The translations under genes and the position numbers were made by a program. Shown piece by piece: positions 1 through 61,312 of a DNA stretch of 64,000 nucleotides. This DNA is from Candidatus Poribacteria bacterium (lineage in GTDB: Bacteria > Poribacteria > WGA-4E > WGA-3G). The notes below the pieces were generated by a model, which saw only the letters and a list, made by a program, of their open reading frames with translations, ran no database searches and had not been told where the DNA came from. The stretch lies in contig OY764016.1 in the NCBI GenBank assembly GCA_963667805.1, forward strand, positions 2,346,998-2,410,997. Direction: 5' to 3'. Position 1 is the first letter of the stretch. Every line of letters begins with the position of its first letter.

Positions 1-450
1 CCCGGAACCGTCCATTTCTTGGACGGAGAAGCAGGCGAACCGCAAGCCGAATGTGATCGACTTAATCGAATTATCTCGCAACATCAGATTGACGTGGCGT
101 TCGTAGGTATCGGTGAGAATGGACATCTCGCTTTCAACGATCCACCGGCGGATTTTGAGACAGAAGATCCGTATATCTTGGTGGAATTAGATGAGGCATG
201 CCGGCTGCAACAGGTCGGCGAGGGTTGGTTTGGAGGCATTGATGATGTGCCGACCCAAGCAATTTCAATGTCCATTCGCCAAATCGTGAAGGCGAAAGCA
301 ATTGTTTGCACTGTGCCGGATGAACGAAAGGCGGAGGCAGTGCGGAATTGCTTGCACGGCGAGATAACGCCATTGCACCCTGCTTCGATTTTACAGACGC
401 ATCCAGATTGTGCGGTATTTTTGGACGCCGGGTCGGCATCGTTGTTGTAG
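1..450 (+). CDS. nagB: glucosamine-6-phosphate deaminase/isomerase family protein (NagB-like), 5' end outside window
   Basis: Open frame from position 1; motif [14 protein letters not shown] matches the NagB/6-phosphogluconolactonase family signature; stop at 450. Confidence 0.7.
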
Positions 451-476
451 AAAATGGAGGGTGTCGATGAAAGATG

Positions 477-1516
477 CAATTAGAGTTGGGATCATTGGTG
501 TCGGTGGGACAATCGGCAGCACGACCGCTATTCTCGCCGCAGAGCCGAACGTAGAACTCGTCGCTTTGGCGGATCCGGATCCCACCCGCAGGAAACGGGT
601 CTTGGATGGGATTAAAGGGGTCCGCGTTTTCGATGATTATCGGCAGATGTTTGACGCCTGCGATTTAGACGCAGTCTGCATTGGACTTCCGACGTGGATG
701 CACGCCCCTGTCTCGCAGGAAGCGTTGGAACTTGGATTGCATGTACTCTGTGAAAAACCACCATCAAACGATGCAGCAGAGTTAATACCGGTCACGCAGC
801 TTGCCGCAACCAAAGGTCTTGTTTATATGTTCGTCCGCCAATCGCGGTTCACGTCCCAGTTGATGGAGGGACGTAGGCTTGTGCAGGCTGGGGAACTCGG
901 GGACGTATATTACGCGGAGACTCGATGGATACGCACGCGATGGTGTTCTGCACGCGGATGGCGGCACGATAAAGCGAAAGGTGGTGGGGTCCTCCTGGAT
1001 CTCGGTATTCACGCCATTGATAACGTCTGGTTTATGATGGGCAATCCGCGTCCCACAGAGGTCATGGCTGGAATGTATTGCACTTTTTCCGATCTCGCGC
1101 CTCCTGAACAAATTTACACCGCAGATGATGCTGCTTGCGGGTTTGTGCGGTTTGAGAACGGGTGCACCTTGCATTTTGCTGTCGCGTTTTCGATGAATAC
1201 CACAAATCGGCAGGCGCCAGCAAAGGGGAGCGATCTGGTCAAAAGTGAGACGCAGGAGTTTCAACTTTACGGAACGAAGGGAGGCCTCGAAAGCGGAAAA
1301 CTACTCGTTGGGACACCGGACGGTGTTAAGGTCAAACCCATAAAAGCACCCCCACAGAAGGCGAATGAGGTAACACTTCAGGCGCGAGAATTCATTCGAG
1401 CGATTCGGGAAGGCGATGAACCCCTTAATTCCGGTTCACAGGCAGTAATGCTGATGCAAATGCTCGATGGAGCAATGAAATCCAGTGAAATCGGCAGTGC
1501 CGTTGCGATTCTTTAA
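477..1516 (+). CDS. Gfo/Idh/MocA family oxidoreductase
   Basis: N-terminal Rossmann motif IRVGIIGVGGTIG, EKP motif (LCEKPPS), typical length; SD GGAGGG before ATG 477; TAA stop lies inside repeat module A. Confidence 0.8.
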
Positions 1517-1655
1517 TTTTACTTTGCGGTTCGGTGAGGCAGGTTGGGACATTCATGTTCCTTTCCGTATATCTGAAAAAACCCCAAGCAAAAACCCCTC
1601 AACTACGCTTACGGGCTGCGCGCTTTTGTTATGCTTGTTGCAGGCTAAGGTTTTG
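1512..1655 (+). repeat. intergenic repeat family 1, full copy (modules A-B-C-D)
   Basis: TTTAATTTTACTTTGCGGTTCGG (A) ... CCTTTCCGTATATCTGAAAAAA (B) ... CCCAAGCAAAAAC..CTACGCTTACGGGCTGCG (C) ... GTTGCAGGCTAAGG (D, inverted); module A contains TAA stop of upstream gene. Confidence 0.8.
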
Positions 1656-4980: not shown

Positions 4981-5108
4981 CATTCCTCAGCCGTAGCCTG
5001 CAACAATACGCAGAAATACCCTATCAAAAACACGCAGACGGATTTGAGGGATGTTCATCACAGTTTTAATCAATGTCATTCTTCCGCAAGGTAAGATTAA
5101 AAATTCAA
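4981..5108 (-). repeat. intergenic repeat family 1, diverged full copy
   Basis: CCGTAGCCTGCAACAATACGCAGAAATACC (D) ... CCGCAAGGTAAGATTAAAAATTCAA (A, inverted) containing TAA stop of minus-strand gene 5097..6149. Confidence 0.7.
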
Positions 5109-6149
5109 TCCAAGGATATCCCGATTCCGTGCAGTGTCGGTTTCTCCGCCCGCAAAGTCATCAAAAGCGACATCGGTCGTTTCGATAATATGTTTGGCAA
5201 TAAACGGTGCACCTTCTGCCGCCCCTTGCTCTGGACTTTTAACACAACATTCCCATTCCAGGACCGCCCAGCTGTCGTAACCCGCTTCGGTCAGGAGTGT
5301 GAACACCTGTGTGAAATCCACTTGCCCATCACCAAGTGAACGGAATCTGCCAGCACGTCCAGCCCATGATTGATAACCTCCGTAAACCCCAACCCGACCT
5401 GTTGGACGGAATTCAGCATCTTTAACGTGGAATCCCTTGATGCGTTCGCTGTAAAGTCGGATGAAGTCGATATAGTCGAGCTGTTGAAGGAGAAAATGGC
5501 TTGGGTCGTAGTTGAGGCAGGCGGCGGGATGGTTGTCCGTATAATCTAAGAACATCTCATAGGTCGCACCGTCGTAAATGTCTGAACCCGGATGGAGTTC
5601 GTAGGCGAAGACCTGACCGTTATCGTGTGCCAGATCCAGAAGTGGTCGCCAACGTGCGGCGAGTTCTTTGAACGCCTCTTCAATAATTCCATCGGGACGC
5701 TGGGGCCACGGGTAGATCGTATGCCACGCGAAGCCACCTGAAAGCACAGGAATGACATCCAGTCCCATATTCACCGAGGCGTGGATACATTTCGTTAATT
5801 CTTCTGTTGCCCATGCTGTTCTTTCGGCACCTCGTAAGCCGGGCGGATGGAACGCCTCAAACATAACTTCATACGCGGGATGCACAGCCAAGACCTGTCC
5901 AGCGAGATAACCGGCGACCTCTGTCGCTTCAAGTCCCATCTCGTTGAGTGTCCCTTTGAATTCGTCGCAATAGGTTTTAGATTCAGCGGCTTTTCCGATG
6001 TCAATGACGCGATCGTCCCAATTCGGGATTTGGACGCCTTTGTACCCCAAGCCCGCAACCCATTTCCCGATATTTTCCATCGTGTCGTATGGTGCCTCGT
6101 CCCGCATAAATTGGGCGAGGAAGATAGCTGGACCTTTGATTTTCGGCAT
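5097..6149 (-). CDS. sugar phosphate isomerase/epimerase (xylose isomerase-like TIM barrel)
   Basis: 350 aa; conserved HPGSD, YDPSHF and VKDAE motifs of the XI-like TIM barrel family; TAA stop embedded in repeat module A. Confidence 0.75.
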   Translation of the reverse strand: MPKIKGPAIFLAQFMRDEAPYDTMENIGKWVAGLGYKGVQIPNWDDRVIDIGKAAESKTYCDEFKGTLNEMGLEATEVAGYLAGQVLAVHPAYEVMFEAFHPPGLRGAERTAWATEELTKCIHASVNMGLDVIPVLSGGFAWHTIYPWPQRPDGIIEEAFKELAARWRPLLDLAHDNGQVFAYELHPGSDIYDGATYEMFLDYTDNHPAACLNYDPSHFLLQQLDYIDFIRLYSERIKGFHVKDAEFRPTGRVGVYGGYQSWAGRAGRFRSLGDGQVDFTQVFTLLTEAGYDSWAVLEWECCVKSPEQGAAEGAPFIAKHIIETTDVAFDDFAGGETDTARNRDILGLNF

Positions 6150-6416
6150 TCTACCTGTTACTCCTGTCTTTGTATGTAATCCGTAACAATATAAGAGGTG
6201 TAAGTGTTGTTATTAAGTACGCCATTCAGTTTCAAATCGGCGAAAAATAATTACCAAAAGTTCGCAAACTTCGGGTATAATATACAAAAGTTGCTGTGTA
6301 ATGTCAAGAGTTTTAGAGGTAGATATAAGGTCTTTTAATTTTTCCAATTATCCGAATCGCGGATTATACAGGTTTCACAGATAATAACCTTTTATTAAAA
6401 ACGCAGCCCGTAATGA

Positions 6417-6440
6417 AATTATGCCTTAAACGGCATAATT
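6417..6440. promoter_or_regulatory. perfect palindrome in divergent intergenic region (candidate operator)
   Basis: AATTATGCC-TTAAAC-GGCATAATT, 9-bp arms, between divergently transcribed 5097..6149 and 6546..7391. Confidence 0.35.
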
Positions 6441-6506
6441 TGTCTTTGCTTTACATTTGGAGGGCGGATATACGGAAATGCCCATCAAGTACGAAACCCA
6501 CCTCAT

Positions 6507-6530
6507 CGAACCGCAAGGTATAATTAAAAA
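6507..6530 (-). repeat. repeat family 1, solo module A upstream of ABC ATPase start
   Basis: CGAACCGCAAGGTATAATTAAAAA, 16 nt before GTG 6546. Confidence 0.6.
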
Positions 6531-6545
6531 GCGAAAGGAAAAAGA

Positions 6546-7391
6546 GTGGAACAACCTATCTATGGATTGACGGTTCGCGGGGTAACGAAACATTTCCATC
6601 GGACCAAGCAAACGAACGATAAACCGCGTTTTCATCAAAAACTTCAGCATATATTCAGGCGCGAGAAGGAAGTCATCCGCGCAGTTGACGACATCTCTTT
6701 AGAGGTAAACATCGGGGAAATCTACGGTATTCTCGGCGCGAATGGATCGGGAAAGTCGACGCTGATTCGTCTCATTTCGACGCTGCTCCTGCCCGATGCT
6801 GGGAGTATTCAGGTCTTCGGCGACGATGTCGTGACAAATAGTCTGAAGGTTCGACAGGTGATGAACCGCGTCTCTGTTGAGGCTTCTTTCTTTAAACGTC
6901 TCTCTTCGGAAGAGAACCTGATTTATGCTGCCCGCCTCTACGGTATCCCCGCTCCCGAAGCCGAACGAAAATCAAAACAGATTTTAGAAAGACTCGGTTT
7001 TGATGCAGATCGGATGAACGAAGAGATGGAACATCTCTCGCGTGGGATGCAACAGAAAGTCGCCATCGCACGTGCCTTACTCACCACTCCCATGCTACTC
7101 CTGCTCGATGAACCCACGACAGGACTCGATCCGAAATCTAAGCGCGATGTGCAAGCCTTTATTGAGGAGATCCGTCAAGAACGGAACGCTGTCATAGTGC
7201 TAACGACGCACGATATGGCGGAGGCAGAGCGGTTGTGCGATAAGATCGCGATTATTGATAAAGGACGGTTTATCGCAGAAGGAACGGTAGAAGAACTCAT
7301 CGCGAATGCCCCATCACAGAACGGGGTGCCAGCGACGTTGGAGGACGTGTTTATCGCGCTAACGGGTAAAGGGATTGAGGAGGAGGACTAA
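6546..7391 (+). CDS. ABC transporter ATP-binding protein
   Basis: Walker A GANGSGKST, ABC signature LSRGMQQKVAIARAL, Walker B LLLDEPTTGLD; GTG start 6546 preceded by AAGGAAAA and repeat module A. Confidence 0.9.
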   Translation: MEQPIYGLTVRGVTKHFHRTKQTNDKPRFHQKLQHIFRREKEVIRAVDDISLEVNIGEIYGILGANGSGKSTLIRLISTLLLPDAGSIQVFGDDVVTNSLKVRQVMNRVSVEASFFKRLSSEENLIYAARLYGIPAPEAERKSKQILERLGFDADRMNEEMEHLSRGMQQKVAIARALLTTPMLLLLDEPTTGLDPKSKRDVQAFIEEIRQERNAVIVLTTHDMAEAERLCDKIAIIDKGRFIAEGTVEELIANAPSQNGVPATLEDVFIALTGKGIEEED

Positions 7392-16412: not shown

Positions 16413-16435
16413 AAACCGCAAGGAAAATTATAAAT
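16413..16435 (-). repeat. repeat family 1, module A forming the translation initiation region of DUF1015 gene
   Basis: AAACCGCAAGGAAAATTATAAAT immediately followed by ATG; AAGGA to ATG spacing 11 nt. Confidence 0.7.
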
Positions 16436-17686
16436 ATGGAAACAACCGTTATTCCGTTTCGAGGCTTACGCTACAACGCGACTCAGGTGAAAAGCATTGA
16501 GAACGTCATCGCCCCTCCTTACGATGTCATCAAACCCGATGAGCGGGTCGCTTTAGAGGCACGCCACCCTGCCAATATCATTCGTTTAATCTTAAGCCAA
16601 CCGCAAGACAACGATACTGACCACGAAAACCAATATACCCGTGCCGCTGTCCGCATGAAGCAGTGGATTTCAGATGGCACGCTCGTCAGGGACACAACAC
16701 CCCGTTATTACATCTACGACCAATCCTTTAACGCTCCCGACGGAAAAAACTATACGCGTCGCGCCTTAATAGCACTCGTGAAACTCGAACCCTTTGAAAA
16801 TCGGGTGATCCTACCGCACGAAAAAACACATGCCGGACCGAAGGCGGACCGACTCAATCTCATGCGGGAATGTCACGCCAATCTCAGCCCTATCTTCCTC
16901 CTCTACGCCGACCCCGCAGGAGATATTGAACGGATAATGGAGAGTTTCACGGATAAAAACCAGCCCCAGATTGACTGTCCTGAAACCTTTGGAAGCACAC
17001 ACCGACTCTGGTGTTTAGACGACACAGAACGCAATCGTGAGATTCAGGCTCTTTTCTCAACAAAACCGCTCCTGATCGCTGATGGACATCACCGCTATGA
17101 AACCGCACTCGCTTTCCAAGATGAAATGGCGCAGCAGACATCAAAGGGTTACGGCTATATGATGGTGAACCTCGTCAGAATGGAATCACCGGGGTTGGCA
17201 GTCTTAGCAATCCATAGACTCCTGTCTAACCTCAATGCAGATCGGATCGCACACGCTATTGCGAAACTGCCAGAGACGTTTGAGGTGCATGAAATTGATA
17301 CACAGGCAGCCCTCATGGCACAATTGGATACGATAAGAGGGAAATCCCCTGCAGTTGGTATGTACACAGCAGACGACACCTACCGTCTGTTGATTCCGCA
17401 TTCAACGCTCCCGAATCAATTGGATGTAACGCTTGTTCAAGAAACCCTCATCAAAAATCTATTTCAGATTGAAACACTGGCGGAACACATCAGTTATACC
17501 GCATACACAGATGATGCCGTTGCACACGTGAAAGAAGGCACAGACAACGTCGCACTTCTGATGAACCCAACCCCCGTTGAACAGGTCTTAGATGTGGCTA
17601 TGGCAGGATCCACAATGCCACAGAAATCCACCTACTTCTATCCGAAGATGGCAACAGGGTTCGTTTTAAACCTGTTGCGTGTATAA
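16436..17686 (+). CDS. DUF1015 family protein
   Basis: 416 aa; IPFRGLRY N-terminus and ILPHEKTH...DRL.L motif typical of DUF1015; start preceded by module A (CCGCAAGGAAAATTATAAAT-ATG). Confidence 0.55.
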   Translation: METTVIPFRGLRYNATQVKSIENVIAPPYDVIKPDERVALEARHPANIIRLILSQPQDNDTDHENQYTRAAVRMKQWISDGTLVRDTTPRYYIYDQSFNAPDGKNYTRRALIALVKLEPFENRVILPHEKTHAGPKADRLNLMRECHANLSPIFLLYADPAGDIERIMESFTDKNQPQIDCPETFGSTHRLWCLDDTERNREIQALFSTKPLLIADGHHRYETALAFQDEMAQQTSKGYGYMMVNLVRMESPGLAVLAIHRLLSNLNADRIAHAIAKLPETFEVHEIDTQAALMAQLDTIRGKSPAVGMYTADDTYRLLIPHSTLPNQLDVTLVQETLIKNLFQIETLAEHISYTAYTDDAVAHVKEGTDNVALLMNPTPVEQVLDVAMAGSTMPQKSTYFYPKMATGFVLNLLRV

Positions 17687-17727: not shown

Positions 17728-17862
17728 AACCGTATCTGTAGAGCACAAAAAGCGCAGCTCGTAATGAAATGGAGGGGTTTTTGCTTGGGTGTTTCTTCAG
17801 ATTTGAGAAAAGAACGTGAAATTCCAGACACATGTTGTTTAACCGCAAGGAAAATTAAAAGA
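17728..17862 (-). repeat. intergenic repeat family 1, full copy (inverted), module A abuts ATG 17863
   Basis: GGAGGGGTTTTTGCTTGGGTGTTTCTTCAGATTTGAGAAAAG...AACCGCAAGGAAAATTAAAAGA collinear with reverse complement of copy 1512..1655. Confidence 0.75.
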
Positions 17863-18903
17863 ATGTATTATGAACAGGAACGGGATACATTAGCATTTTC
17901 GCATCAATTATATGCGGAGACCCCGCGTCAACTCGCATTTCAGGCGAGGAGCATTACAGAGGCAGAAGCCTGGCAGCGCGAACTTCGGGCAAAACTTATC
18001 GAATTAGTGGGTGGTTTTCCGCAGGAAACCTGCGACCTACACCCCCAAGTGCTGGATTCTTGCGAATTTCCCACCTATTTCCGCGAGACGGTGGAGTTTC
18101 AGAGTCGTCCACACGCCAACATTTTCGGGTATTTCCTTTCTCCGAAGCCTCTCGACAGTTCAACCCCGAACCCAACGATCCTCTGCTTAGCAGGGCACGG
18201 ACGCGGTGTAGATGATATTGTCGGAATCGAGGAAGATGGCACCCTGCGATCAGAATATGGCGGTTATCAGAACGACTTCGCGCTCCAATGCGTAGCAAAC
18301 GGGTACACCGTGCTTGCCATTGAACAATTCGGGTTTGGTCACCGACGGGATCCGATTGCGCACGAGAAGGGTGGCGGGAGTTCTTCATGTCAACCGAGTG
18401 CTGGTGCTGCGCTCCTCTTAGGCTATACAATGGTAGGGTGGCGGGTTTACGATGCGATGCGCGCCCTGGACTATCTGGCAACGCGCCCGGAGGTCGATAT
18501 GAACCGCATCGGCGTGATGGGAATATCTGGCGGTGGCACAACGACCTTCTTCACTGCCGCAATTGATGAACGGGTCAAGGCAGCCATTGTGAGCGGTTAC
18601 TTCAACACGTTTCGGGACAGTATCCTGAGCCTCAGCCATTGTATAGACAATTATATACCAAATGTGCTACAATATGCGGAAATGTACGACATCGCAGGGT
18701 TGATTGCACCGCGCGCCCTATTCGTTGAATCCGGGACGGAAGACACGATTTTTCCGATTGAAGCCACCCGCTTTGCGGTTAACGCGGCACAAGCAATTTA
18801 CAAATGCTTCGATGCTGAAGACAAATTAGGTCTTGAAGTATTTGAGGCAGGACATAGTTTCCACGGTGTTGGCGCATTTGAATTTCTTAAACAGGTGCTA
18901 TAA
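17863..18903 (+). CDS. alpha/beta hydrolase (dienelactone hydrolase / acetylxylan esterase-like)
   Basis: GISGGG nucleophile elbow, downstream Asp/His; start ATG 17863 exactly 11 nt after AAGGA of repeat module A. Confidence 0.65.
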   Translation: MYYEQERDTLAFSHQLYAETPRQLAFQARSITEAEAWQRELRAKLIELVGGFPQETCDLHPQVLDSCEFPTYFRETVEFQSRPHANIFGYFLSPKPLDSSTPNPTILCLAGHGRGVDDIVGIEEDGTLRSEYGGYQNDFALQCVANGYTVLAIEQFGFGHRRDPIAHEKGGGSSSCQPSAGAALLLGYTMVGWRVYDAMRALDYLATRPEVDMNRIGVMGISGGGTTTFFTAAIDERVKAAIVSGYFNTFRDSILSLSHCIDNYIPNVLQYAEMYDIAGLIAPRALFVESGTEDTIFPIEATRFAVNAAQAIYKCFDAEDKLGLEVFEAGHSFHGVGAFEFLKQVL

Positions 18904-20233: not shown

Positions 20234-21049
20234 ATGAAACCTGCCGGATTAATTCACGCCACTCTCGCCGCTGAAAAGGAAACAGCCCGACTCTTGGAGG
20301 CTATTGAAGCGAAACAGAGGCAGGTAGAAGAACTTACAATAGCAATCGAGACGTTAAGATCAGAAGTTGACGTATTTGAGAGACGCTACAACGCTCATAT
20401 CAGTCAATATTACCTCGAACTCGATAAAGTTGAACTCGAAATGAAGGCGTATCGCCTCCGTCTACAGCTGCGTCGAGAAAATGTAAACGAAGAAGAGATA
20501 GAAGCGCGGGTAGAATCATGTTTCAGGGCAAGCCGCGCACGTGTTGACGCTTATGAGGCAGTAAATGAAGCAGAACCAACGCCTCCAGCGGACAAACTTC
20601 CTGATGCCAAAGCGAAGCATTTACAAGACCTCTACCGCAAACTCGCCAAACGGTATCATCCAGACAAAACCATAGACATCGAGGAATCGGAACGACGCGA
20701 ACAACTCATGCCGCTCATTAACCGTGCCTATAACGAACACGACCTTGAGACCTTAGAGCGGTTAAGCCTCGGTGAAACAGAACTACATGTCCCTGAAAAA
20801 ACAGTGATTGAGAAGCGAAAAGCGTTACACACAGAACTGCGACAGCTTAACCGAGCCGCGAGCCACTTGCGATTTGAGATAAACCGACTCAAGACGGGAC
20901 GCACCTATCAACTGAAACAACAGGTAGAAACCGCCCAAAAAACGGGGACAGATCTCCTTACGACCCTTGCCAAAGATTTAGAGCGAAAAATCAAAGCAAG
21001 CCGAGGGCAACTCGCACGCCTCATGAATATGTGGCACCGTGCGCAATGA
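20234..21049 (+). CDS. J-domain-containing coiled-coil protein
   Basis: Internal J-domain-like segment LYRKLAKRYHPDK (HPD motif) flanked by predicted coiled coil. Confidence 0.5.
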   Translation: MKPAGLIHATLAAEKETARLLEAIEAKQRQVEELTIAIETLRSEVDVFERRYNAHISQYYLELDKVELEMKAYRLRLQLRRENVNEEEIEARVESCFRASRARVDAYEAVNEAEPTPPADKLPDAKAKHLQDLYRKLAKRYHPDKTIDIEESERREQLMPLINRAYNEHDLETLERLSLGETELHVPEKTVIEKRKALHTELRQLNRAASHLRFEINRLKTGRTYQLKQQVETAQKTGTDLLTTLAKDLERKIKASRGQLARLMNMWHRAQ

Positions 21050-21054
21050 AGGAT

Positions 21055-21143
21055 TTTAATTTTACCTTGCGGAAGAATAACGCGAGTTTAGATTTTGATG
21101 TGCTTTTCTAAGTACTCGCCTGCGCCGGTGTTGCAGGCTACGG
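21055..21143 (+). repeat. intergenic repeat family 1, short copy (A ... D)
   Basis: TTTTAATTTTACCTTGCGG 6 nt after TGA stop of 20234..21049; GTTGCAGGCTACGG at 21130..21143. Confidence 0.7.
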
Positions 21144-23127: not shown

Positions 23128-24780
23128 TCACTTCTCTAAAACGATCCGAACCTCCGTATCCGTGCCGTGCTCGCCAACACCCATCTCAGCAGTCATCGGA
23201 CCGAGAGACTCCAGCGGAAAGAGATTTTCTGTGATATGTCGCGTCCCTGTCGGGTCCAACTTCTGCCCTGAAAGCGATAGAAGTACCGTTAGGATCGGAA
23301 GGAAACGCTTCAATTCCGGCACGAACAACTTCGGTTGAACAAACGCTTGAATGCCACTTGCATCAGCGGAAAATGCTATATCCTCCAAGAGAGGTGCGTT
23401 ACCTGTCGTCGTATCAATCACAGACTTCAATCCTGATAGTGTTGTCCCCAAGACGAAATAGTCGTCAACGATTGCGTATCCACCCGTAACGGCTAATAGG
23501 AAATTGAGTCGGAGCTGCACGGGTTGCAGCGTGACACCCTTGTAATCCTGCCGTTCAAGGTATTCAAGCGGTTTGCCGGCAATTGCGGGCTTTCCGTGCT
23601 TCACGATTCCCAAAATCTCGTTTAGGACATCGGGAGCCTTCGCATGCGCCAGCAAAACCAACGTAGGCACAACCGACACTTCACCCGGATCAGGAGCAAC
23701 CAACAAGACGGTTAAGTCCGCACCCAAAATCTCGGAGAGATCTATATCGCCAAAGAGCGCTTGCATCTGTTTCAGAATAGGAAGCGAAGCGACAAAGGCA
23801 GTGCGTTCGGGAAAAGCAAGGAACGGTTTCGCGTTGTCCGCAGTCGGCAGATGAGAAAGGTTGGCGTCAACACTGTTTCGGAACCGATGTCGTGACACAA
23901 TCACACCGTCTTCATACCGGTTGCTGAACGTCCAAGTTCCTGAATTCCCAAACCACCCCAAAATCTGTTTGACAAGCACATCGGAACGCATACTATCGAA
24001 CAAGGGAGTAAATTGCTGCATATCCACATACCCAGTATTTTTGTCCCTATTATAATCGTCCTGTATATCCACCGCCATGGGATGTGCAGCGAGAAATCCT
24101 TGATTTTTCGGATCAGTTTTAGTTTCAGAAAGCTCGGTATAGAGGTCAAGCGTCTCAGCCAATAACAACGGGTCGAGGGTTAAAATACCAATTCTGCCGA
24201 TGAAAGTATAACTAAAATTGCGTGGATACCCTATGATGGTATTAATCGTGAATCCGCTGTAATCGGTTTGAATGCGCTCGTATTTTGGGTTGATTGCATC
24301 CGTTGCTGTAATCGCTTCAATACTCAGTTTTTCCTGTGCGCCTACTGCAGAGATAAGCAGAAACGAGAGTTCTCCTTCACGTCGATACAGGGCAAGAATG
24401 GCTTCCTCCCCAAAATAGCCCGTAATCGTCTTCAGGTCGAGTCTACCCCCCATTTCGTATTCCCAGAGCTGCTTCTGATAGACGAGTTGTTCCCACCATC
24501 GCTGCTTCTGAATCTCAGTGAGAATCGGCATCTTAGCCGTCTGTTTTCCGAATTCACTGCGATTGAAAGTTTCCACCACGCCTTTTAATTCTTTGAGTGT
24601 CAAATAGCAGATTGGAGACCTGGGGAGTAATGTAATAAGATGCTGTTCCGGTTCCCACAGCGCGGTCCGGTGATAGATAATGGATAGCAAAATGATAACC
24701 CCAATAAGAACGATTAGACTGATGAAAGCAATTCTTTTAATTTTTCCTTGTGGGTCGGTCAGGGAACTTAGAACTTTCAT
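23128..24780 (-). CDS. hypothetical membrane-anchored protein (N-terminal TM helix, about 550 aa)
   Basis: Single N-terminal TM (IAFISLIVLIGVIILLSII) then large soluble domain; annotated ATG 24780 makes first 16 codons derive from repeat modules A/B, so true start is uncertain. Confidence 0.5.
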   Translation of the reverse strand: MKVLSSLTDPQGKIKRIAFISLIVLIGVIILLSIIYHRTALWEPEQHLITLLPRSPICYLTLKELKGVVETFNRSEFGKQTAKMPILTEIQKQRWWEQLVYQKQLWEYEMGGRLDLKTITGYFGEEAILALYRREGELSFLLISAVGAQEKLSIEAITATDAINPKYERIQTDYSGFTINTIIGYPRNFSYTFIGRIGILTLDPLLLAETLDLYTELSETKTDPKNQGFLAAHPMAVDIQDDYNRDKNTGYVDMQQFTPLFDSMRSDVLVKQILGWFGNSGTWTFSNRYEDGVIVSRHRFRNSVDANLSHLPTADNAKPFLAFPERTAFVASLPILKQMQALFGDIDLSEILGADLTVLLVAPDPGEVSVVPTLVLLAHAKAPDVLNEILGIVKHGKPAIAGKPLEYLERQDYKGVTLQPVQLRLNFLLAVTGGYAIVDDYFVLGTTLSGLKSVIDTTTGNAPLLEDIAFSADASGIQAFVQPKLFVPELKRFLPILTVLLSLSGQKLDPTGTRHITENLFPLESLGPMTAEMGVGEHGTDTEVRIVLEK

Positions 24781-24897
24781 GTGCCTTTCCGTATATCTGA
24801 AAAAATGCCCAAGCAATACGCAGAAATACCCAAGCAAAAACACCCCTCCGCTACGCTTACGGGCTACGGGTTTATTTTTTTTAATTCTTCCTTGCGG
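24735..24897 (+). repeat. intergenic repeat family 1, composite copy (A-B-C-A')
   Basis: TTTTAATTTTTCCTTGTGGGTCGG (24735..24758), CCTTTCCGTATATCTGAAAAAA, ...CTACGCTTACGGGCTACGGG, second A TTTTTTTTAATTCTTCCTTGCGGG (24875..24897); first A lies inside annotated N-terminus of minus-strand gene. Confidence 0.75.
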
Positions 24898-40795: not shown

Positions 40796-40832
40796 GTAGA
40801 GGAACGGTGACCAGATGCCCATAGTTTAAAAT
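40796..40832 (+). promoter_or_regulatory. conserved ~40-nt 5' leader (family 3) upstream of GldF-like permease
   Basis: GTAGAGGAACGGTGACCAGATGCCCATAGTTTAAAAT-ATG; about 75% identical to 48348..48385. Confidence 0.5.
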
Positions 40833-41558
40833 ATGAGAAATATTCTTGCAGTTTGCACAAAAGAACTCTATACCTATTTCGTTTCACCGATCGCCTATTT
40901 CGTCTGTTTCGTCTTTACAGCGATTTCGGGCTTCCTGTTCTCCATCCTGCTCATCAGTGCGAGCAACGTTGGCGGGACCGGCGGATACGTGATGGAAACC
41001 CTCTTCGGTAACATGGCGATTGTCTTACTCTTTTTCACGCCAGTGCTGACAATGAAACTCTTTGCAGAAGAACGGAAATCGGGAACGATCGAACTACTCC
41101 TTACCTCCCCAATCACAGACGGACAAGTGGTTCTCGGCAAATTCTTTGCGAGTTGCACATTGGTCCTGATTATGCTTGGCTTAACGCTTCTATTTCCACT
41201 CTTAACCCAACGTTTCGGTTATTTGGACAGTGGACTCCTCATCAGCGGTTATTTGGGTATCATCCTCATTAGTTCTTCATTTCTATCATTAGGTTTACTG
41301 ATGTCGTCAATGTGTAAAAACCAACTCGTCGCTGCATTGACGAGTTTCGGTATCCTCATAACATTATGGGTGATCGGCTCGCTCTCAGCGCGTGGTGGAC
41401 CGATAGCGAAATTCCTGAGTTATCTGTCGTTACCTGAACACTACCGAGATTTCTCACGCGGTATCATCCTGTTGAAAGATGTTATTTACTACATCAGTTT
41501 CACATGTGTCTGCTTATTTGCGACATTCAAGTCGATTGAATCATCAAAATGGAGATAG
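40833..41558 (+). CDS. ABC-2 type transporter permease (GldF-like)
   Basis: 241 aa, 6 TM, ABC-2 pattern, followed by GldG-like gene. Confidence 0.7.
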   Translation: MRNILAVCTKELYTYFVSPIAYFVCFVFTAISGFLFSILLISASNVGGTGGYVMETLFGNMAIVLLFFTPVLTMKLFAEERKSGTIELLLTSPITDGQVVLGKFFASCTLVLIMLGLTLLFPLLTQRFGYLDSGLLISGYLGIILISSSFLSLGLLMSSMCKNQLVAALTSFGILITLWVIGSLSARGGPIAKFLSYLSLPEHYRDFSRGIILLKDVIYYISFTCVCLFATFKSIESSKWR

Positions 41559-45024: not shown

Positions 45025-45100
45025 CTGTAGCCTGCAACAATACGCAGATAAACACTATTTATCCGATCTACCTTATCGAACCGCAAGGTAAATTAGAAAT
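45025..45100 (-). repeat. intergenic repeat family 1, short copy (D ... A), module A abuts ATG 45101
   Basis: CTGTAGCCTGCAACAATACGCAGATAAACAC ... CGAACCGCAAGGTAAATTAGAAAT-ATG. Confidence 0.7.
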
Positions 45101-46309
45101 ATGCAGACCTATCTTATCGCAACCGCTTACTTTTTCGTTATCATTGAACTGCTAATTATTAGTAGGTCCTTTCGGTACGCTCGGCGCGAACGTAAGGCGG
45201 ATCGACCGACCTATACCCCCAAGGTGGCAGTCATCGCGCCGCACTATGGATGGGATGCCGACACAGTAGAACACGCCAAAGGACTTTTGTATCAAACCTA
45301 TGCCGGTGAGTATGAAGTCTTCTTCGTCACACATCAGAAAGCGGACGTCGGACACGATGTCTCTTATCCACATCTATGTGAAATTGCTGAGGCACATCCA
45401 CATGCGCACGTGCTGTTAGCACCGAACATCGTTGAAAACAACCTTCCACGCTCACAAAAGGTGCAGAATCTCATCACAGCGATAGAAAAACTCCCAGACG
45501 ATATCGAAGTCATCGCGTTTGTAGATGCCGATGTTGATATCCGAGAGGATTGGTTAACGCTGCTTGTGAATCCACTTCAAGAACCCGACATAGGGACAAC
45601 CGTAGGGGGACGTTTCTATTTTCCACAAACATGGAATATCGCATCTCTGGTGGAAGCCATCTGGGTAAACTTCCAGATGAGTTTCCAAGGCGATCATCCG
45701 CTTTCAATGGTCTGGGGTGGCTCTAATGCCTTCCGACGCGAGATGCTTGAGAAGGCACACATCCTTCAACGCTGGGAAGAAGCAACCATCGAAGACCTGA
45801 ATACGACCCTTGCCATGCGAGATGTTAAACACAAGGTGCATTTTGTCCCAGACTGCGTAGCGATTACACGCACCTCCAATCGGACATGGCACCAAATTGT
45901 GGAATTCACGAACCGCCAGCTGATTATGACCTTCCACATGGGACTTTGGCGGCAGTGGCTCGCGAGCCTCATTGTACTTCTACCGAAAGGTCTCTGTGTA
46001 TTCGGAGCGATTCCACTTCTATTCTATCGTGAAGGGGTGCTACCGATTGTTTTTATCCCATTTCTGGAAGCATTTGGTTACAGGCTCTACGCCAAAAATC
46101 TACCGAAGTGGCTTCGCGAAATGCCGAAGATGCGGGAGACAATTGGCATCACCTCTTATGTGACTTCAGTTTCGCTACTTCTCGGAGGCATCAACGCCCT
46201 CTATGCAGTATTCCAACGCAAAATCACCTGGGGTGGGGTGCGCTATGAAATCTTGTCTGCGACGAAATGTCGGGTTTTAGGCGCCGTAAAACCCAAAGAC
46301 TTTGGTTAA
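45101..46309 (+). CDS. glycosyltransferase family 2 (ceramide glucosyltransferase / HpnI-like)
   Basis: N-terminal TM, DxD region (FVDADVDI), C-terminal TM helices; start preceded by module A with 11-nt spacing. Confidence 0.6.
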   Translation: MQTYLIATAYFFVIIELLIISRSFRYARRERKADRPTYTPKVAVIAPHYGWDADTVEHAKGLLYQTYAGEYEVFFVTHQKADVGHDVSYPHLCEIAEAHPHAHVLLAPNIVENNLPRSQKVQNLITAIEKLPDDIEVIAFVDADVDIREDWLTLLVNPLQEPDIGTTVGGRFYFPQTWNIASLVEAIWVNFQMSFQGDHPLSMVWGGSNAFRREMLEKAHILQRWEEATIEDLNTTLAMRDVKHKVHFVPDCVAITRTSNRTWHQIVEFTNRQLIMTFHMGLWRQWLASLIVLLPKGLCVFGAIPLLFYREGVLPIVFIPFLEAFGYRLYAKNLPKWLREMPKMRETIGITSYVTSVSLLLGGINALYAVFQRKITWGGVRYEILSATKCRVLGAVKPKDFG

Positions 46310-46965: not shown

Positions 46966-48186
46966 ATGGCACTACGTAGTCGAATCTCACCACGGTTTTT
47001 TGTCAATGAACTCGCCAGTGCTATGTCGGAAGATTGGGATACCTCCAGCAAGTTCGTTCGCTATCAACTCGCCAAGGAAAGTTTCAACTGGCGACACCCA
47101 CTCGGTGCCAAACACGGCAAAGGCGACGCTATTCAACTGGTGAGCCTCCGTATTACCGATATGTGCAACCTCCGTTGCCATTCCTGTGGACAATGGGGCG
47201 ATAACGGATACCTACTTGGAAAGTCCATGAAAGAGCTGAAGCAGCGCGAGGTTCCGGTTGAAGTGTATAAAAACCTTGTGGATCAGATTGTGGATGAAGG
47301 CTGGTCTCCGGTGTGGTACATCTGGGGCGGTGAACCCATGCTGTATCCGGGCATCATCGAATTGATGCACTATATCAAAGAGCGAGGCATGCCTATATCA
47401 CTGGTGAGTAACGCAACGAACATCGCCAGACGCGCCGACGATATTTTGGAAACCTGTAAAATTATCTACCTCAGTGTTGATGGACCGAACGAGGAAGTTC
47501 ACAATACACAACGTCCCGGTCTAACGCCAAACTACGATAACTTTAAAGACGTCAAGGCTGCATTAGAAACACTTAGTGCCGCAAAAGAGAAACGGAATAT
47601 AAAGTTTCCTTATATTATTCCCCTCAGCTGCGTCACGATGTATAACATTGACGTTGTCGTAGATCTCTATAAATTCACGCATCAATACGCAGACGCGCAA
47701 ATCTTTTACTTGACCTGGTGGATAGATTCCGAATCGGCACAGGAACACACAGAAGATTTCGAGAAACGCTTCGGGTTCAAACCGCAAACCCATTACGGTT
47801 GGATAGGCACATGGAAAGACTTCGATCACGGTGTCATCTTGGATCGTTTTGAAGAGATGGAAAGCATCTCCAACGAAAAGAGACGCTGTCCTCCGATCAT
47901 GATGCCGCGACTCAACACACGCGGTGAGATTCAACGGTATTACACAGATCACGATCAAACCTTTGGATATAATCAGTGTGTCAGTATCTATATGACAATG
48001 GAAATCGATAGCAATGGTGACGTTAGCCTCTGTCGCGATTACCACGACTATATCATCGGCAATATCAAAACGGATAAGGTCGTTGATATGTGGAACAACC
48101 AGAAGGCGATGAAATTTCGGCAGTCGGTGAGTAACGATGGACCGATGCCCGTCTGTCGCCGCTGCTGCGGACTCATGGGTTTTTAA
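46966..48186 (+). CDS. radical SAM / SPASM domain protein
   Basis: CNLRCHSC (CX3CX2C) radical SAM cluster motif at residues about 68-75, GGEPMLYP SAM-binding, Cys-rich C-terminus (CRDYHDY...CRRCCG) typical of SPASM/twitch; TAA stop inside module A. Confidence 0.7.
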   Translation: MALRSRISPRFFVNELASAMSEDWDTSSKFVRYQLAKESFNWRHPLGAKHGKGDAIQLVSLRITDMCNLRCHSCGQWGDNGYLLGKSMKELKQREVPVEVYKNLVDQIVDEGWSPVWYIWGGEPMLYPGIIELMHYIKERGMPISLVSNATNIARRADDILETCKIIYLSVDGPNEEVHNTQRPGLTPNYDNFKDVKAALETLSAAKEKRNIKFPYIIPLSCVTMYNIDVVVDLYKFTHQYADAQIFYLTWWIDSESAQEHTEDFEKRFGFKPQTHYGWIGTWKDFDHGVILDRFEEMESISNEKRRCPPIMMPRLNTRGEIQRYYTDHDQTFGYNQCVSIYMTMEIDSNGDVSLCRDYHDYIIGNIKTDKVVDMWNNQKAMKFRQSVSNDGPMPVCRRCCGLMGF

Positions 48187-48204
48187 TTCTACCTTGCGGT
48201 TCGG
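48181..48204 (+). repeat. repeat family 1, solo module A containing TAA stop of radical SAM gene
   Basis: TTTTAATTCTACCTTGCGGTTCGG with TAA at 48184..48186. Confidence 0.65.
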
Positions 48205-48347
48205 TTAGGATAAACTGGTAACTGGTAAGTTTTTAATTTTGGAGTACTGATCTGCCTTCCACTGCATTTCAGGCAGATTCTTGGTGCAATTCGCACGGGG
48301 TATGTTCCCTGAAACCCTTTCGTACTTAACCAGAAACCATCGCGAAA

Positions 48348-48385
48348 CGTAGTGGAGCGATGCTCAGAGGACCATAGTTAAAAAT
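48348..48385 (+). promoter_or_regulatory. conserved ~40-nt 5' leader (family 3) upstream of sugar phosphate isomerase
   Basis: GTAGTGGAGCGATGCTCAGAGGACCATAGTTAAAAAT-ATG. Confidence 0.5.
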
Positions 48386-49249
48386 ATGAAAATAGGATTA
48401 CGAATTCCGGGCACTGCTCGACAATTGCCCTTCGCAGATTTTTGTAAGTGGTGCGCGGATAACGGGTTTGAAGCCGTTGACATAGGAGAAACGACTCCCG
48501 AAATTGTGAAAACCGCGAGAGACGCCGGTCTCGTGATCGGGTCCGCGGATCTCCCCGGTGTCAGCGACTTACTCAGCACGAAAAAATCTAAACAGAAAGC
48601 CGGGGCTTCGGCAGCAAAAGCCGCCATTGAAGCCGCTGCTGACAATGATGTCCATATTATGTTCTGCGTCTTTGTGCCAGAAGATGCCAGTCTCGGCAGA
48701 GCCAAAAACTTTGATATTTGGAAGCGAACCATCCCACCTATCGCCGAGTTCGCCGCCTCTAAAGGTGTAACCATCGCGGTAGAAGGATGGCCTGGCCCCG
48801 GTCCCGCCTATCCTGCCCTCGGTTGCACACCGGAGATGTGGCGTGCGATGTTCGCGGAATGTTCATCCCCGGGATTAGGACTCAACTATGATCCATCACA
48901 CCTCGTCAGAATCGGGATCGATTATTTACGTGCCTTGAACGAATTCGCACCCTACGTGAAACACGTCCACGGAAAGGACACCGCCTTCGACGAAGAAGCC
49001 CTCTATCTACACGGCAATTTGGGACCGAGCCTGCAATCTGCCAAAGGTTTCGGTGAAGATTGGTGGCGTTATACGATTCCTGGCGATGGGATAGTGGATT
49101 GGCTGAGAGTGGTGCAACGTTTGGAAGACGAGGGTTTTGATGGTATCGTGAGTGTAGAACTTGAAGATTACCGGTATTGGCGAACGTGGGAAGCAGAATC
49201 GGACGGTCTGCGCCGCTCACGCGAATTCCTCGCGGAGTTTGTTCGGTAA
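48386..49249 (+). CDS. sugar phosphate isomerase/epimerase (xylose isomerase-like TIM barrel)
   Basis: GFEAVDIG, NYDPSHL, HGKD, VSVELED motifs. Confidence 0.75.
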   Translation: MKIGLRIPGTARQLPFADFCKWCADNGFEAVDIGETTPEIVKTARDAGLVIGSADLPGVSDLLSTKKSKQKAGASAAKAAIEAAADNDVHIMFCVFVPEDASLGRAKNFDIWKRTIPPIAEFAASKGVTIAVEGWPGPGPAYPALGCTPEMWRAMFAECSSPGLGLNYDPSHLVRIGIDYLRALNEFAPYVKHVHGKDTAFDEEALYLHGNLGPSLQSAKGFGEDWWRYTIPGDGIVDWLRVVQRLEDEGFDGIVSVELEDYRYWRTWEAESDGLRRSREFLAEFVR

Positions 49250-60118: not shown

Positions 60119-61312
60119 TTAAAACACCAACTCCGTCTCCACCGCTTCGTTGTAGTCTACGCCTTCAACCTCAAACCCGAACAGGTTTCGGAAGCGTCGC
60201 CTGAAGTCTGCGTAATCGGAGAGTTCATGGAAATTGTCGGTATCGATTTGCTCCCAACGCTCCGTCACTGCGTTTGTCACCTCAGGTTGTAACTCACGGT
60301 CATCGAGGCGAATATAGCGTTCGTTGTCGAGGTGTGGTTGTAGTCCAGGTCCAAGATGCTCCGAGAAGAGCCGTCGCATCTGCCCAATCGGTGCCTCATT
60401 GATGCCTTTGGCATTCATAATGTCATAGAGGATACTGACATAGAGCGGCACGACCGGAATTGCTGCAGACGCTTGTGTAACGACGGCTTTGTTTACCGAG
60501 ATATAGGCATTACCACCGAGTTGATTTGCGAGTCGCTCGTCAAGTGCGTCAACACGCGTCTTGAGATCATCCTTTGCTCTACCGATGGTCCCATCCCAAT
60601 AAATGGGCCACGTTAAGGTGCTCCCGATATAGGTATAGGCAACAACTGTGACTTCTGGCGCGAGCAACTCCGCTTCCGCCAATGCGTCAATCCACATCTC
60701 TAAATCTTCACCGCCCATCACGGCAACTGTATCCGCAATCTCCTGTTCAGTTGCGGGATCAATGGTAACAGGGACGATGGTTTCTCGATTCAGATCAATC
60801 GTTTTTCCTGTATACGGCTCACCGATCGGTTTCAGTTGTGATTGATGTGAGGCACCGGTTTTCGGATGTATGCGTCGGGGTGCGGCGATACTGTAGACGA
60901 GCATATCTATTTTGCCGAAATTCGCCTTGAGTCGGTTAATTGCCTCTGCCTTCATCTCATCGGAAAACGCATCTCCGTTGAGACTATCGGCGAAAAACCC
61001 ATCCGCTGTCGCCTGTCGATGGAAAGCAGCAGTGTTATAGTAACCTGCCGTTGCAGTGCGTCTGGCATCGGCGGGACGTTCATAAAGAAGTCCAAGCGTC
61101 TTCGCACCGTAAGCCCAGGTCAGAGCGATCCGAGAGGCGAGTCCATACCCTGTTGATGCCCCGATGACGAGTGCGTTCATATCTGTCGCTTTGTAGGGAA
61201 TGCCCTGTTTAATCTCATCTATCTGATTAAGGACATTCGCGTGACAACCCGCCGGATGGGCATTGGTGCAAATAAATCCGCGTATCCGAGGCTTAATAAT
61301 TTGAATCGCCAT
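60119..61312 (-). CDS. fabV: trans-2-enoyl-ACP/CoA reductase
   Basis: N-terminus MAIQIIKPRIRGFICTNAHPAGC matches FabV signature; 397 aa; start abuts repeat module A. Confidence 0.85.
   Translation of the reverse strand: MAIQIIKPRIRGFICTNAHPAGCHANVLNQIDEIKQGIPYKATDMNALVIGASTGYGLASRIALTWAYGAKTLGLLYERPADARRTATAGYYNTAAFHRQATADGFFADSLNGDAFSDEMKAEAINRLKANFGKIDMLVYSIAAPRRIHPKTGASHQSQLKPIGEPYTGKTIDLNRETIVPVTIDPATEQEIADTVAVMGGEDLEMWIDALAEAELLAPEVTVVAYTYIGSTLTWPIYWDGTIGRAKDDLKTRVDALDERLANQLGGNAYISVNKAVVTQASAAIPVVPLYVSILYDIMNAKGINEAPIGQMRRLFSEHLGPGLQPHLDNERYIRLDDRELQPEVTNAVTERWEQIDTDNFHELSDYADFRRRFRNLFGFEVEGVDYNEAVETELVF

Follow-up and report, generated by a model that had tools for sequence, protein, structure and literature searches.

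What kind of signal stands directly before the start codon at position 16436 of the Candidatus Poribacteria DNA analysed here, a stretch of 64 kb (the window)? The gene that starts there, a DUF1015 gene, has its ATG abutting a 20-nt motif, module A, which recurs in the window before genes of unrelated functions. A sequence-only reading had taken the motif for a translation initiation region of fixed geometry, with conservation beyond what a ribosome requires. We asked where the copies lie, how they relate to the ends of genes, and which explanation fits them best.

Module A as the end of a mosaic cassette

Module A consists of an 8-nt core, CCGCAAGG, followed by a 12-nt tail of the form WAnnAT and TAAAAA. 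At the DUF1015 gene (16416..16438, plus strand) the core occupies 16416-16423 and the tail, AAAATTATAAAT, 16424-16435. The Pfam DUF1015 domain begins at residue 5, so the ATG at +20, counted from the first C of the core, is the true start; an exact-protein look-up of the DUF1015 protein returned no record. Eleven copies with a CCGCAAGG-type core and an A/T tail were found in the window. Exact CCGCAAGG 8-mers also numbered 11, compared to 1.76 expected, a count reached in 0 of 100 shuffles; those at 15338 and 50536 lack the tail and are chance matches within coding sequence. The 21-nt pattern of the sequence-only reading matched six times (0.03 expected). Its five cited sites (16436, 17863 and 45101 on the plus strand, 61312 on the minus strand, and 6546 with an insertion) were found as described, and its fixed geometry held, with a constant spacing from AAGG(A/T) to ATG. 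It had not listed six further copies, at 24746-, 24890-, 1522-, 5084+, 21065- and 48192-.

Module A forms the right end of a mosaic cassette of ~100 nt, which reads REP-like hairpin, spacer, core and tail. The left module is a 'GTAG' REP-like hairpin, and the spacer of ~45 nt falls into at least three subfamilies, which are common to different genomes. The hairpin stem covaries, with 40 double-change cells compared to 14.6 in shuffles (0/500 reached this) and 87% of the cells paired; the GTAG followed by a hairpin with compensatory stem changes is what a REP/BIME element would carry. Hairpins occur singly and in a fixed orientation relative to module A, and tandem arrays of 21 nt and of ~85 nt exist among the copies.

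The full composite is best seen at 17754..17865 (plus strand), where the hairpin GCAGCTCGTAATGAAATGGAG (17754-17774), a GGAGGGGTTTTTGCTTGGG module and a spacer of ~41 nt lead to the core at 17843-17850, the tail at 17851-17862 and the ATG of an abhydrolase gene at 17863. At 45026..45103 (plus strand) the hairpin has decayed (GTAGCCTGCAACA..ATACGCAG) and 15 nt are deleted relative to L067; the spacer is followed by the core at 45081-45088, the tail TAAATTAGAAAT and the ATG of a GT2 glycosyltransferase gene at 45101, and from core through ATG the two sequences are 100% identical while the spacer has ~82% identity. The minus-strand composite at 61310..61401 runs from the hairpin GCAGCCCGAAACGAAGTGGAG (61381-61401) through a spacer to the core at 61325-61332, the tail at 61313-61324 and the ATG (61312-61310) of fabV, whose Pfam enoyl-reductase NAD(P)H domain begins at residue 5. 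The copy with the insertion is part of a composite of ~200 nt (6326..6548, plus strand), with the core at 6511-6518, the tail TATAATTAAAAA at 6519-6530 and a partial inverted tail at its left end (6333-6345). The insertion had been put at 16 nt before an ATG; we found a leader of 15 nt after the module, with a Shine-Dalgarno sequence (SD) of its own, AAAGGA, and then a GTG start at 6546 (ABC ATPase).

A tandem pair of module A copies, 144 nt apart, lies on the minus strand at 24730..24897, with a hairpin and GGGGTGTTTTTGCTTGGG and ATATACGGAAAGG modules between the copies. The upstream copy (core 24890-24897) directly follows tgtgcTATAAT; the downstream copy has the core CCACAAGG at 24746-24753 and its tail at 24734-24745, and a long ORF continues from an ATT at 24732 (+21). 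The window also holds a sister family, built as a hairpin, CCAGAnnnAA and AATAGT-TAAAAA(A)-ATG, which keeps the -10-like box and the ATG geometry and has no AAGG. At 48341..48388 (plus strand) a cassette without CCGCAAGG consists of the hairpin CGCGAAACGTAGTGGAGCG, a short spacer and CCATAGTTAAAAAT before an ATG at 48386, and is kept in L067 and L090; at 40819..40835 (plus strand) the sister-family tail CCATAGTTTAAAAT abuts the ATG at 40833.

Registration with gene starts and stops

We compiled 171 copies, most of them ascertained by a pattern in which a large part of the tail is set in advance. A long ORF started exactly 20 nt after the first C of the core in 57 of the 171, at +18 to +22 in 77, and within 100 nt in 128; in the reverse direction, as a control, a long-ORF start was found within 100 nt in only 19. 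Copies that the pattern had not selected behaved in the same way (16/45 at +20). The start codon at +20 was ATG in 54 of the 57, compared to 189 of 239 SD-led genes (79%; p = 0.004). Apparent ATT, ATC and ATA starts occur as well. The class is distinct from ordinary SD genes, as had been claimed; most other window genes carry GGAGG or AAGGAG 5-9 nt before the start. Where a gene is not flush with the module, leadered copies place their own GGAG or canonical SD straight after +20 (GGAGagaaacGTG, GGAGaaaacATG, atGGAGGagatATG, and gcgAAAGGAaaaagaGTG at window 6511).

The hard boundary at +19/+20 is shared by copies in the other orientation. Roughly 13% of the copies (22/171) are reversed and flush with the stop codon of a convergent gene, and four window copies (1522-, 5084+, 21065- and 48192-) precede no gene and face the 3' end of a convergent one, their tails overlapping or abutting its stop codon. 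The minus-strand module at 1510..1529 (core CCGCAAAG at 1522-1529, tail 1510-1521, remaining composite to ~1650) contains in its tail the TAA (1514-1516) of the plus-strand GFO/IDH/MocA gene 410..1516, and it is kept in L051. The plus-strand composite at 4995..5103 (core 5084-5091, tail 5092-5103) contains in its tail the stop (5097-5099) of the minus-strand xylose-isomerase-like gene 5097..6149. Between two plus-strand genes, the reversed composite at 21053..21139 (core 21065-21072, tail 21053-21064, hairpin GTAGCCTGCAACACCGGCGCAGGC near 21115-21140) ends 3 nt from the stop (21047-21049) of the gene 20234..21049. Finally, the minus-strand module at 48180..48199 (core 48192-48199, tail 48180-48191) contains the TAA (48184-48186) of a radical SAM/SPASM gene and is a lineage-specific insertion at this natural stop codon. 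A search for ncRNA genes downstream of orphan copies found none.

The motif is confined to one phylum, Candidatus Poribacteria; of the pattern-scan loci, 108 of 109 belonged to Poribacteria or to unnamed MAGs. Close relatives differ in carrying the cassette, and filled and empty orthologous sites exist: the orthologous site in L046, for example, lacks the whole 6326..6548 block. The cassette and the SD also replace each other. At window 8238 a gene starts as GGAGG-N5-ATG, an arrangement also present in the outgroups L111-L113; in L046 and in L110/L180 its SD is missing and the cassette directly abuts that same ATG. This exchange between relatives, the phylum-wide dispersed repeat polymorphic for gain and loss, and the reversed copies at stop codons are all absent from the sequence-only reading.

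A promoter, a ribosome site or a mobile element

Among 61 copies not selected by the pattern, A+9 (93%) and T+13 (95%) were the best-conserved tail positions, the others ranging from 34 to 87%, and both were kept in 11 of the 11 window copies. The tail carries the sigma70 -10 signature nAnnnT, ending 6 nt before the ATG, which is the geometry of a leaderless mRNA; the -10-like hexamer directly after the core is typically TAAAAT or TATAAT. With a -10 so placed, transcription by RNA polymerase would begin on the start codon or beside it, giving a leaderless mRNA. Judged from the sequence, module A may well be a movable promoter cassette, that is, a portable expression signal giving a leaderless mRNA from the ATG; we hold the chances of this to be about even. 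The sequence comparisons establish the cassette's anatomy and geometry, its taxonomic range, orientation bias and insertion polymorphism, and its exchange with the SD; promoter activity, a transcript start at +20, leaderless translation and mobility are inferred from them. The hexamer after the core would act as a sigma70-type -10, followed six A-rich bases on by the A of the ATG, and for genes set further downstream transcription would begin immediately ahead of their own SD. The GC-rich 8-mer at -20..-13 would take the place of a -35, with sigma region 3, a separate factor or the mobility machinery as candidate recognisers. AAGG(A) in the core would probably also serve as a weak back-up SD for genes read from upstream transcripts.

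Three candidates had been put forward for the extra recognised element: a promoter -10/-35 surrogate, an RNA-binding protein site or a leader structure. That something beyond ribosome binding is recognised was borne out. Conservation reaches upstream of the core for 60 nt or more. The promoter suggestion fits best of the three in its -10 part; its -35 part did not stand, as no TTGACA-like hexamer lies at 16-18 nt upstream, where the best-match distribution equals that of a shifted control. TGn, the mark of an extended -10, was not found in the copies either, and the tRNA genes of the same genomes have TTGACA-N17-TATACT promoters without the core. This indicates that the element is not a standard promoter type. 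The tRNA promoters also led us to reject the core as part of the phylum's housekeeping promoter, and none of the sigma54, ECF, sigmaB-type, IHF or CsrA consensus sequences fitted when compared by eye (GGA is absent from most copies). A leader structure found no support: RNAalifold recovered none in spacer or core (on 88 copies, only an invariant CC/GG pair), Rfam gave no match (gathering threshold on the window and 18 loci; E<=5 on the window), and single-sequence folds were inconsistent. Spacer hairpins drawn by eye for the subfamilies were dropped because their registers differ between subfamilies. A consensus scan of 14-26 kb for promoters and terminators returned chance-level, uninformative results.

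Other observations bear on the promoter reading from both sides. At divergent intergenic regions, a strong canonical promoter was present on 41% of sides without the element compared to 2 of 14 with it. Canonical promoters do lie just upstream of some copies (L062, with TTGACA-17-TATAAT, L072, L069, L098 and window 24890-) and just downstream of others (L080 and L095), and a second promoter is not needed there. TAnnnT at -12 was not enriched at starts outside the element, which argues that leaderless expression is not otherwise a habit of these genomes. The reversed, stop-flush copies have no obvious use as promoters and count against the promoter reading.

The strongest competitor, which we consider possible but rather doubtful, holds that module A is purely a translation-initiation region on longer transcripts, with weak anti-SD pairing by AAGG(A) and an unstructured A/U-rich 12-mer that recruits the ribosome as an S1-type enhancer, and with no promoter inside. 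The cassette takes the place of the SD, most predicted folds leave its tail unpaired, and an A/U-rich tail directly upstream of an SD, as in the leadered copies, also looks like an enhancer. The transcript would come from an operon or from a canonical promoter; the upstream gene is co-directional in 72% of copies, and canonical promoters lie upstream of several. A at +8, which gives AAGGA, was found in 31 of 57 ATG-abutting copies compared to 25 of 94 others (p = 0.0009). As A+8 weakens the -10 and strengthens AAGGA, its enrichment argues that the core is in the mRNA and is used as an SD, so that a secondary SD role is possible; a link between A+8 and upstream gene orientation, expected if the core were dual-use, was not supported in a small sample. 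The claim that AAGGA is the SD thus stands only in part. AAGG lies 12 nt before the ATG compared to 8 nt in the window's AAGGAG-type SD genes, most copies read AAGGT, the leadered copies bring a GGAG of their own, the complementarity to the anti-SD is limited to AAGG (4 nt) or AAGGA (5 nt), and its spacing is off from that of the organism's other genes. A match of the core to 16S rRNA was given no weight; for h45 the geometry is wrong, and an identity to h27 is at most a candidate. Furthermore, the position-specific invariance of A+9 and T+13 within an A-rich tail has no translational rationale, the sister family dispenses with AAGG, many divergent regions with the element have no other promoter, and reversed or gene-distant copies would be functionless.

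Less probable still is a selfish miniature mobile element, in which a transposase or recombinase acting in trans would recognise core and tail as the element's end, flush junctions would arise by insertion or adjacent deletion, and effects on expression would be incidental and tolerated. The filled and empty sites, the spacer subfamilies shared by several genomes, the tandem arrays, the REP-like covarying hairpin and the common boundary in both orientations would all be expected of such an element. In the 48180..48199 copy the tail overlaps a TTTTTAA native to the radical SAM gene, and one copy has an inverted tail of 13 nt at its other end. Against this stand the strong orientation bias towards gene starts (128 compared to 19) and the loss of the SD where the cassette is flush, which means that the cassette must supply expression. 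Module A also stays intact while hairpin and spacer decay, and no transposase is linked to the element. Presence/absence polymorphism, dispersed copies and subfamilies are as in MITE- or Correia-like elements, whereas four of five composites have no inverted termini and no target duplication is visible at two filled/empty sites, where 11-13 nt were replaced rather than duplicated.

It is very unlikely that the motif marks the regulon of a global transcription factor or nucleoid protein with CCGCAAGG as its operator near promoters and gene ends: the 8-mer is nearly invariant (exact in ~70% of copies found via the tail alone), has no RNA structure and, given the reversed copies, seems to have some orientation-independent function, but the downstream genes are functionally unrelated, 11 copies in 64 kb imply hundreds per genome, and neither an ATG spacing fixed to the nucleotide nor the exchange with the SD is expected of an operator.

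Returning to the movable promoter cassette, we tentatively propose a more specific version, which we think could be right although the balance is against it. Poribacteria would carry an undescribed mobile 'expression cassette' that installs itself flush against CDS boundaries; placed one way, it would delete or replace the SD and bring leaderless expression from a -35-less promoter with a phylum-specific 8-mer, and placed the other way it would end exactly at the stop. Behind it would lie a new mechanism of insertion or trimming, able to sense or exploit the ends of genes, and a mode of promoter recognition specific to the phylum. If module A is a self-contained promoter starting at the ATG, a movable, near-identical cassette would drive roughly one in six of the window's genes, repeat insertion would rewire gene expression in an uncultivated sponge-associated phylum, and genes would pass from SD-led to leaderless expression and back among close relatives. 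The 20-nt sequence would then show where transcription units and genuine start codons are to be expected in metagenome bins of Poribacteria, and would offer a natural system in which to study the origin of leaderless genes, recognition at -20..-13 and a repeat flush with start and stop codons. The cassette is also a candidate compact expression part, and it gives rise to broken assemblies and wrongly called start codons in the genomes of Poribacteria.

Relation to known systems

In the literature that we searched, no paper paired CCGCAAGG with Poribacteria or linked Poribacteria to leaderless genes, 'Poribacteria-1' had no text matches, and no description of the element was found. The leaderless-gene promoters of Actinobacteria and Deinococcus-Thermus, which have a -10 TANNNT ~6-7 nt upstream of the start codon, resemble it in the nAnnnT box ending 6 nt before the ATG, the lack of a -35 consensus and the strong preference for AUG. 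The lack of a canonical SD would be a further likeness, qualified by the AAGG(A) that lies 12 nt before the ATG. Those promoters are individually evolved and degenerate, whereas the Poribacteria box sits inside a repeated cassette of ~100 nt with a near-invariant 8-mer at -20..-13, and the generic leaderless geometry is otherwise absent from the Poribacteria genome. Extended -10 promoters, whose TGn ahead of the -10 makes up for the lack of a -35, share the conserved element immediately upstream of the -10, including a G at -14; here the sequence is CCGCAAGG (8 nt, -20..-13) and not TRTGn, with sigma region 3 as a candidate reader.

As a repeat, the cassette recalls the mycobacterial MIRUs, intergenic repeats whose ends are reportedly in exact register with flanking stop and start codons, as the cassette ends are. 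MIRUs are tandem units of 46-101 bp with small coupling ORFs inside operons; no coupling ORF is apparent in the cassette, whose tail bears a -10 signature. RAYTs mobilise the REP/BIME mosaic elements and REPINs (PMC3575422). The left module of the cassette, GTAG with a short covarying hairpin, and its mosaic, intergenic, high-copy nature are shared with REP/BIME elements, but the Poribacteria hairpins are single and fixed in orientation to module A rather than inverted pairs. REP/BIME elements are not known to keep a set position relative to start codons. The Correia elements (CREE/NEMIS) of Neisseria and the 'putative mobile promoters' (PMC3575422, citing Siddique et al. 2011 and Matus-Garcia et al. 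2012) are high-copy intergenic repeats of ~100-150 nt with outward promoters; they rewire the genes next to them and vary in presence from strain to strain. Like them, the cassette is a high-copy intergenic repeat, is present or absent between strains and would rewire neighbouring genes. A Correia element is bounded by terminal inverted repeats of 26 bp, duplicates a TA target and contains IHF sites; the Poribacteria cassette, by contrast, has neither general terminal inverted repeats nor a visible duplication, directly abuts the start codon and takes over the place of the SD.

Module A and its register with start codons

The stretch at 16413-16438 of the window reads aaaCCGCAAGGAAAATTATAAATATG and carries module A, an 8-mer core (CCGCAAGG or a near variant) followed by a 12-nt A/T tail. 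Exact matches to CCGCAAGG numbered 11 in the window versus 1.76 expected (0/100 shuffles), and the longer pattern of the sequence-only reading matched 6 times versus 0.03 expected. Nine exact copies were intergenic, each followed by a tail of W-A-n-n-A/T-T plus TAAAA; a relaxed scan added two minus-strand copies, 1522 (CCGCAAAG) and 24746 (CCACAAGG), bringing module A to 11 copies in the 64 kb. The gap from 8-mer to ATG was exactly 12 nt at 16436, 17863, 45101 and 61312 (minus strand), and the same geometry recurred across Poribacteria loci, which confirms and generalises the fixed-geometry module proposed before starts. At 6511, the module was followed by 15 nt containing the gene's own Shine-Dalgarno (SD) sequence and then by GTG. 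Gene calls were crude and ORF-based; Pfam matches support these genes as genuine, and the domains DUF1015 and FabV start at residue 5 of the flush window genes (start codon straight after the tail), indicating that these ATGs are true starts. Most other window genes have a GGAGG/AAGGAG SD 5-9 nt before the start, so the flush genes do form the distinct class suggested for them.

When 185,579 species genomes were scanned for the exact pattern, at least 109 loci matched. All but one of the matches listed came from Candidatus Poribacteria or unnamed MAGs, the single exception, Vagococcus, being a chance match; among the matches listed, the motif is thus lineage-specific and very abundant. Window identity to Poribacteria contigs was 83-95%. 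We analysed the 171 copies with enough flanking sequence, most of them picked up by a search pattern in which part of the tail is fixed. Counting from the first C of the core, a long ORF had its first start codon exactly at +20 in 57/171 copies (54 ATG, 2 GTG, 1 TTG), at +18 to +22 in 77, and within 100 nt downstream in 128, compared to 19 for the opposite-direction measure. Copies outside the search pattern behaved similarly (start at +20 in 16/45). ATG made up 95% of starts at +20 versus 79% in SD-led genes of the same loci (p = 0.004). In leadered copies, where a short extra stretch precedes the start, a canonical SD typically began 0-4 nt past +20 (e.g. CCGCAAGGtaaaattaaaaaGGAGagaaacGTG, window 6511). 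This fits a transcript starting near +20, and shows that the core AAGG is not the SD in leadered copies.

Three flush copies lacked ATG, GTG or TTG at +20/+21: window 24730-24753 (minus strand) and two database loci from other Poribacteria genomes or MAGs (as are all L-numbered loci here), L043 (~2001, plus strand) and L100 (~538, plus strand). Their long ORFs run in frame from +21 with ATT, ATC and ATA, respectively, and have plausible N-termini (TM helix, or FAD GxGxxG motif). These codons possibly represent non-AUG starts at a 5' end.

Anatomy of the cassette

Conservation ran from about -66 to +22 across copies, bearing out the claim that it extends 5' of AAGGA. Listings and alignments resolved a mosaic of four parts: left hairpin, spacer, 8-mer core and A/T tail. 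The hairpin opens with GTAG and has two forms, GTAGCCCGTAACGAAGTGGAGGGCGG and GTAGCCTGCAACAACGGCGCAGGCGG, with an extension, GGGGTTTTTGCTTGGG, in some copies; the spacer (~45 nt) falls into three or more subfamilies, with the ends ...CCTGACCGAA, ...CGTTATTTCT/AA or ...GAAACTTAT. Core variants (CCACAAGG, CCGTAAGG, CCTTAAGG, CCATAAGG) differ only in the two middle bases. Compensatory changes maintain the hairpin stem (40 double-change cells versus 14.6 in shuffles, 0/500). No consensus RNA structure was found in spacer plus core, and Rfam gave no match, which leaves the suggested leader RNA structure unsupported. The core's CC-GCAA-GG could presumably fold as a GNRA mini-hairpin, and we take CCGCAAGGT(T)AAAA of module A to equal a conserved 16S rRNA helix 27 segment (GGCCGCAAGGTTAAAACTCAAA in E. 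coli).

Module A was duplicated in tandem, as a 21-nt unit, in 10/171 copies, and the whole unit was also seen in arrays spaced ~85 nt apart. A GGAGGGGTTTTTGCTTGGG(T/C)(G/A)TTTCT module and short units (e.g. GTATTTCTGC, GTCTTTGCTTGGT) were tandemly expanded, microsatellite-like, in some cassettes (window 17771-17795, 24800-24850 and 1580-1610, the latter two on the minus strand; L059, L073). In the composite at 6326-6532, the far end (6333-6345) is a 13-nt inverted module A tail, 85% complementary to 6517-6529; such a tail was present in 1/5 composites tested.

A sister family without CCGCAAGG or any AAGG shares the hairpin loop type (GAAACGTAGTGGAG) and continues with CCAGAnnnAA and then (A/C)ATAGT-TAAAAA(A)-ATG, a short spacer lying between the hairpin and (A/C)ATAGT. 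It includes window 48341-48388 (ATG 48386) and 40819-40835 (ATG 40833), and cassettes in L038, L079, L092, L074, L024 and L064; a start codon adjoins about half of its copies.

Promoter and translation readings of module A

Among 61 copies found by the 8-mer alone, a less-biased set outside the search pattern, A+9 was conserved at 93% and T+13 at 95%, with neighbouring positions at 34-87%. A(-11) and T(-7) are the signature of sigma70-family -10 elements. If the hexamer at +8 to +13 serves as a -10, the A of ATG, six bases on, would be the expected transcription start, which is the geometry of leaderless genes. No -35 was present 16-18 nt upstream of the hexamer, so that only the -10 half of the proposed promoter -10/-35 surrogate found support. 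From these sequence patterns we favour, at about even confidence, a portable -35-less promoter cassette that would yield mRNAs with no leader or a minimal one; AAGG(A) is a possible back-up SD.

Several observations complicate the promoter reading. The tRNA genes of these genomes have textbook, core-free TTGACA-N17-TATACT promoters, so module A is not the standard promoter; near-consensus TTGACA-N17-TATACT/TAAACT lay upstream of tRNA genes in L084 (~7040-7090), L087 (~1985-2030), L076 (~6590-6670) and L093 (~1830-1905). Excellent canonical promoters also lay closely 5' of copies in L062, L072, L069, L098 and at window 24890 (minus strand). Others lay directly 3' of module A in L080 (~2322-2360) and L095 (e.g. 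CCGCAAGGaataattaaaatTTGACA-17-TATAAT), indicating that the cassette can also sit upstream of ordinary promoters. In divergent intergenic regions, 41% of element-free sides had a strong canonical promoter match versus 2/14 element-bearing sides, a small sample. TAnnnT was not enriched at -12 from the starts of element-free genes. Two genes without SD or core have TAAAAT or GACTAT 6 nt before ATG (window 35555-35569 and 11674-11688), possibly generic leaderless starts.

The main rival, in which the cassette serves translation initiation alone and lies on longer transcripts, appears unlikely to us. It draws on A+8, which creates AAGGA and was enriched in flush copies (31/57 versus 25/94, p = 0.0009), suggesting that the core sometimes lies within the mRNA as a weak SD. 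This much of the proposed SD role of AAGGA survives; against it, AAGG stands 12 nt from ATG in module A versus 8 nt when it is part of the AAGGAG-type SDs of other window genes, and leadered copies use their own SD. No link was found between the +8 base and upstream-gene orientation.

Reversed copies, turnover between relatives and known systems

In 43 copies, no gene started in the forward direction within 100 nt. A convergent long ORF had its stop codon at +12 to +23 in 22 of them, exactly at +13 in 13, where the gene's TAA is the tail's TTA; no such ORF ended at +24 to +150 or crossed the core. In the window, the stop codon was inside the tail at 1522 (minus), 5084 (plus) and 48192 (minus), and 3 nt away at 21065 (minus); the convergent genes are complete. 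The radical SAM protein at 48192 ends in CCGLMG(F/Y) at 406 aa across phyla, and relatives have no element past the stop codon, indicating that the 48192 copy was inserted directly against the natural stop; the tail coincides with the gene's own TTTTTAA. In both orientations the boundary at +19/+20 is hard, which could possibly arise from insertion preference, microhomology, or trimming of DNA beside an active element end.

For the gene at 8238, the window sequence reads catGGAGGagttgATG, and the orthologues L111-L114, which are more distant, show GGAGG-N5-ATG or -TTG. Full cassettes with differing spacers lie before this gene in L046 and in L110/L180; they end ...CCGCAAGG(a/t)ataattaaaaaATG at that same codon, with loss of the SD. 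L046 has no counterpart of the ~200-nt composite at 6326-6532 and keeps the SD of the gene there. Compared to L067, the 45081 copy has identical core, tail and ATG and a ~82% identical spacer, and its hairpin has lost 15 nt in the window. No element accompanies the GT2 and radical SAM orthologues found in more distant relatives. Relatives also carry ~1.1-1.2-kb insertions, L051 4716-5838 (versus window 456-467) and L046 1551-2728 (versus 11516-11686); read by eye, the L046 insert appears to hold two small toxin-antitoxin/addiction-module-like ORF pairs. That the cassette is primarily selfish, with module A as its end sequence, we rank after the translation-initiation rival and consider quite improbable.

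No description of the cassette was found in the searchable literature. Leaderless -10 promoters, Correia-type elements, 'putative mobile promoters' (PMC3575422), REP/BIME mosaics and MIRUs come nearest among known systems, but no one of them combines a near-invariant, phylum-wide 8-mer with single-nucleotide start- and stop-codon register and SD exchange between relatives.
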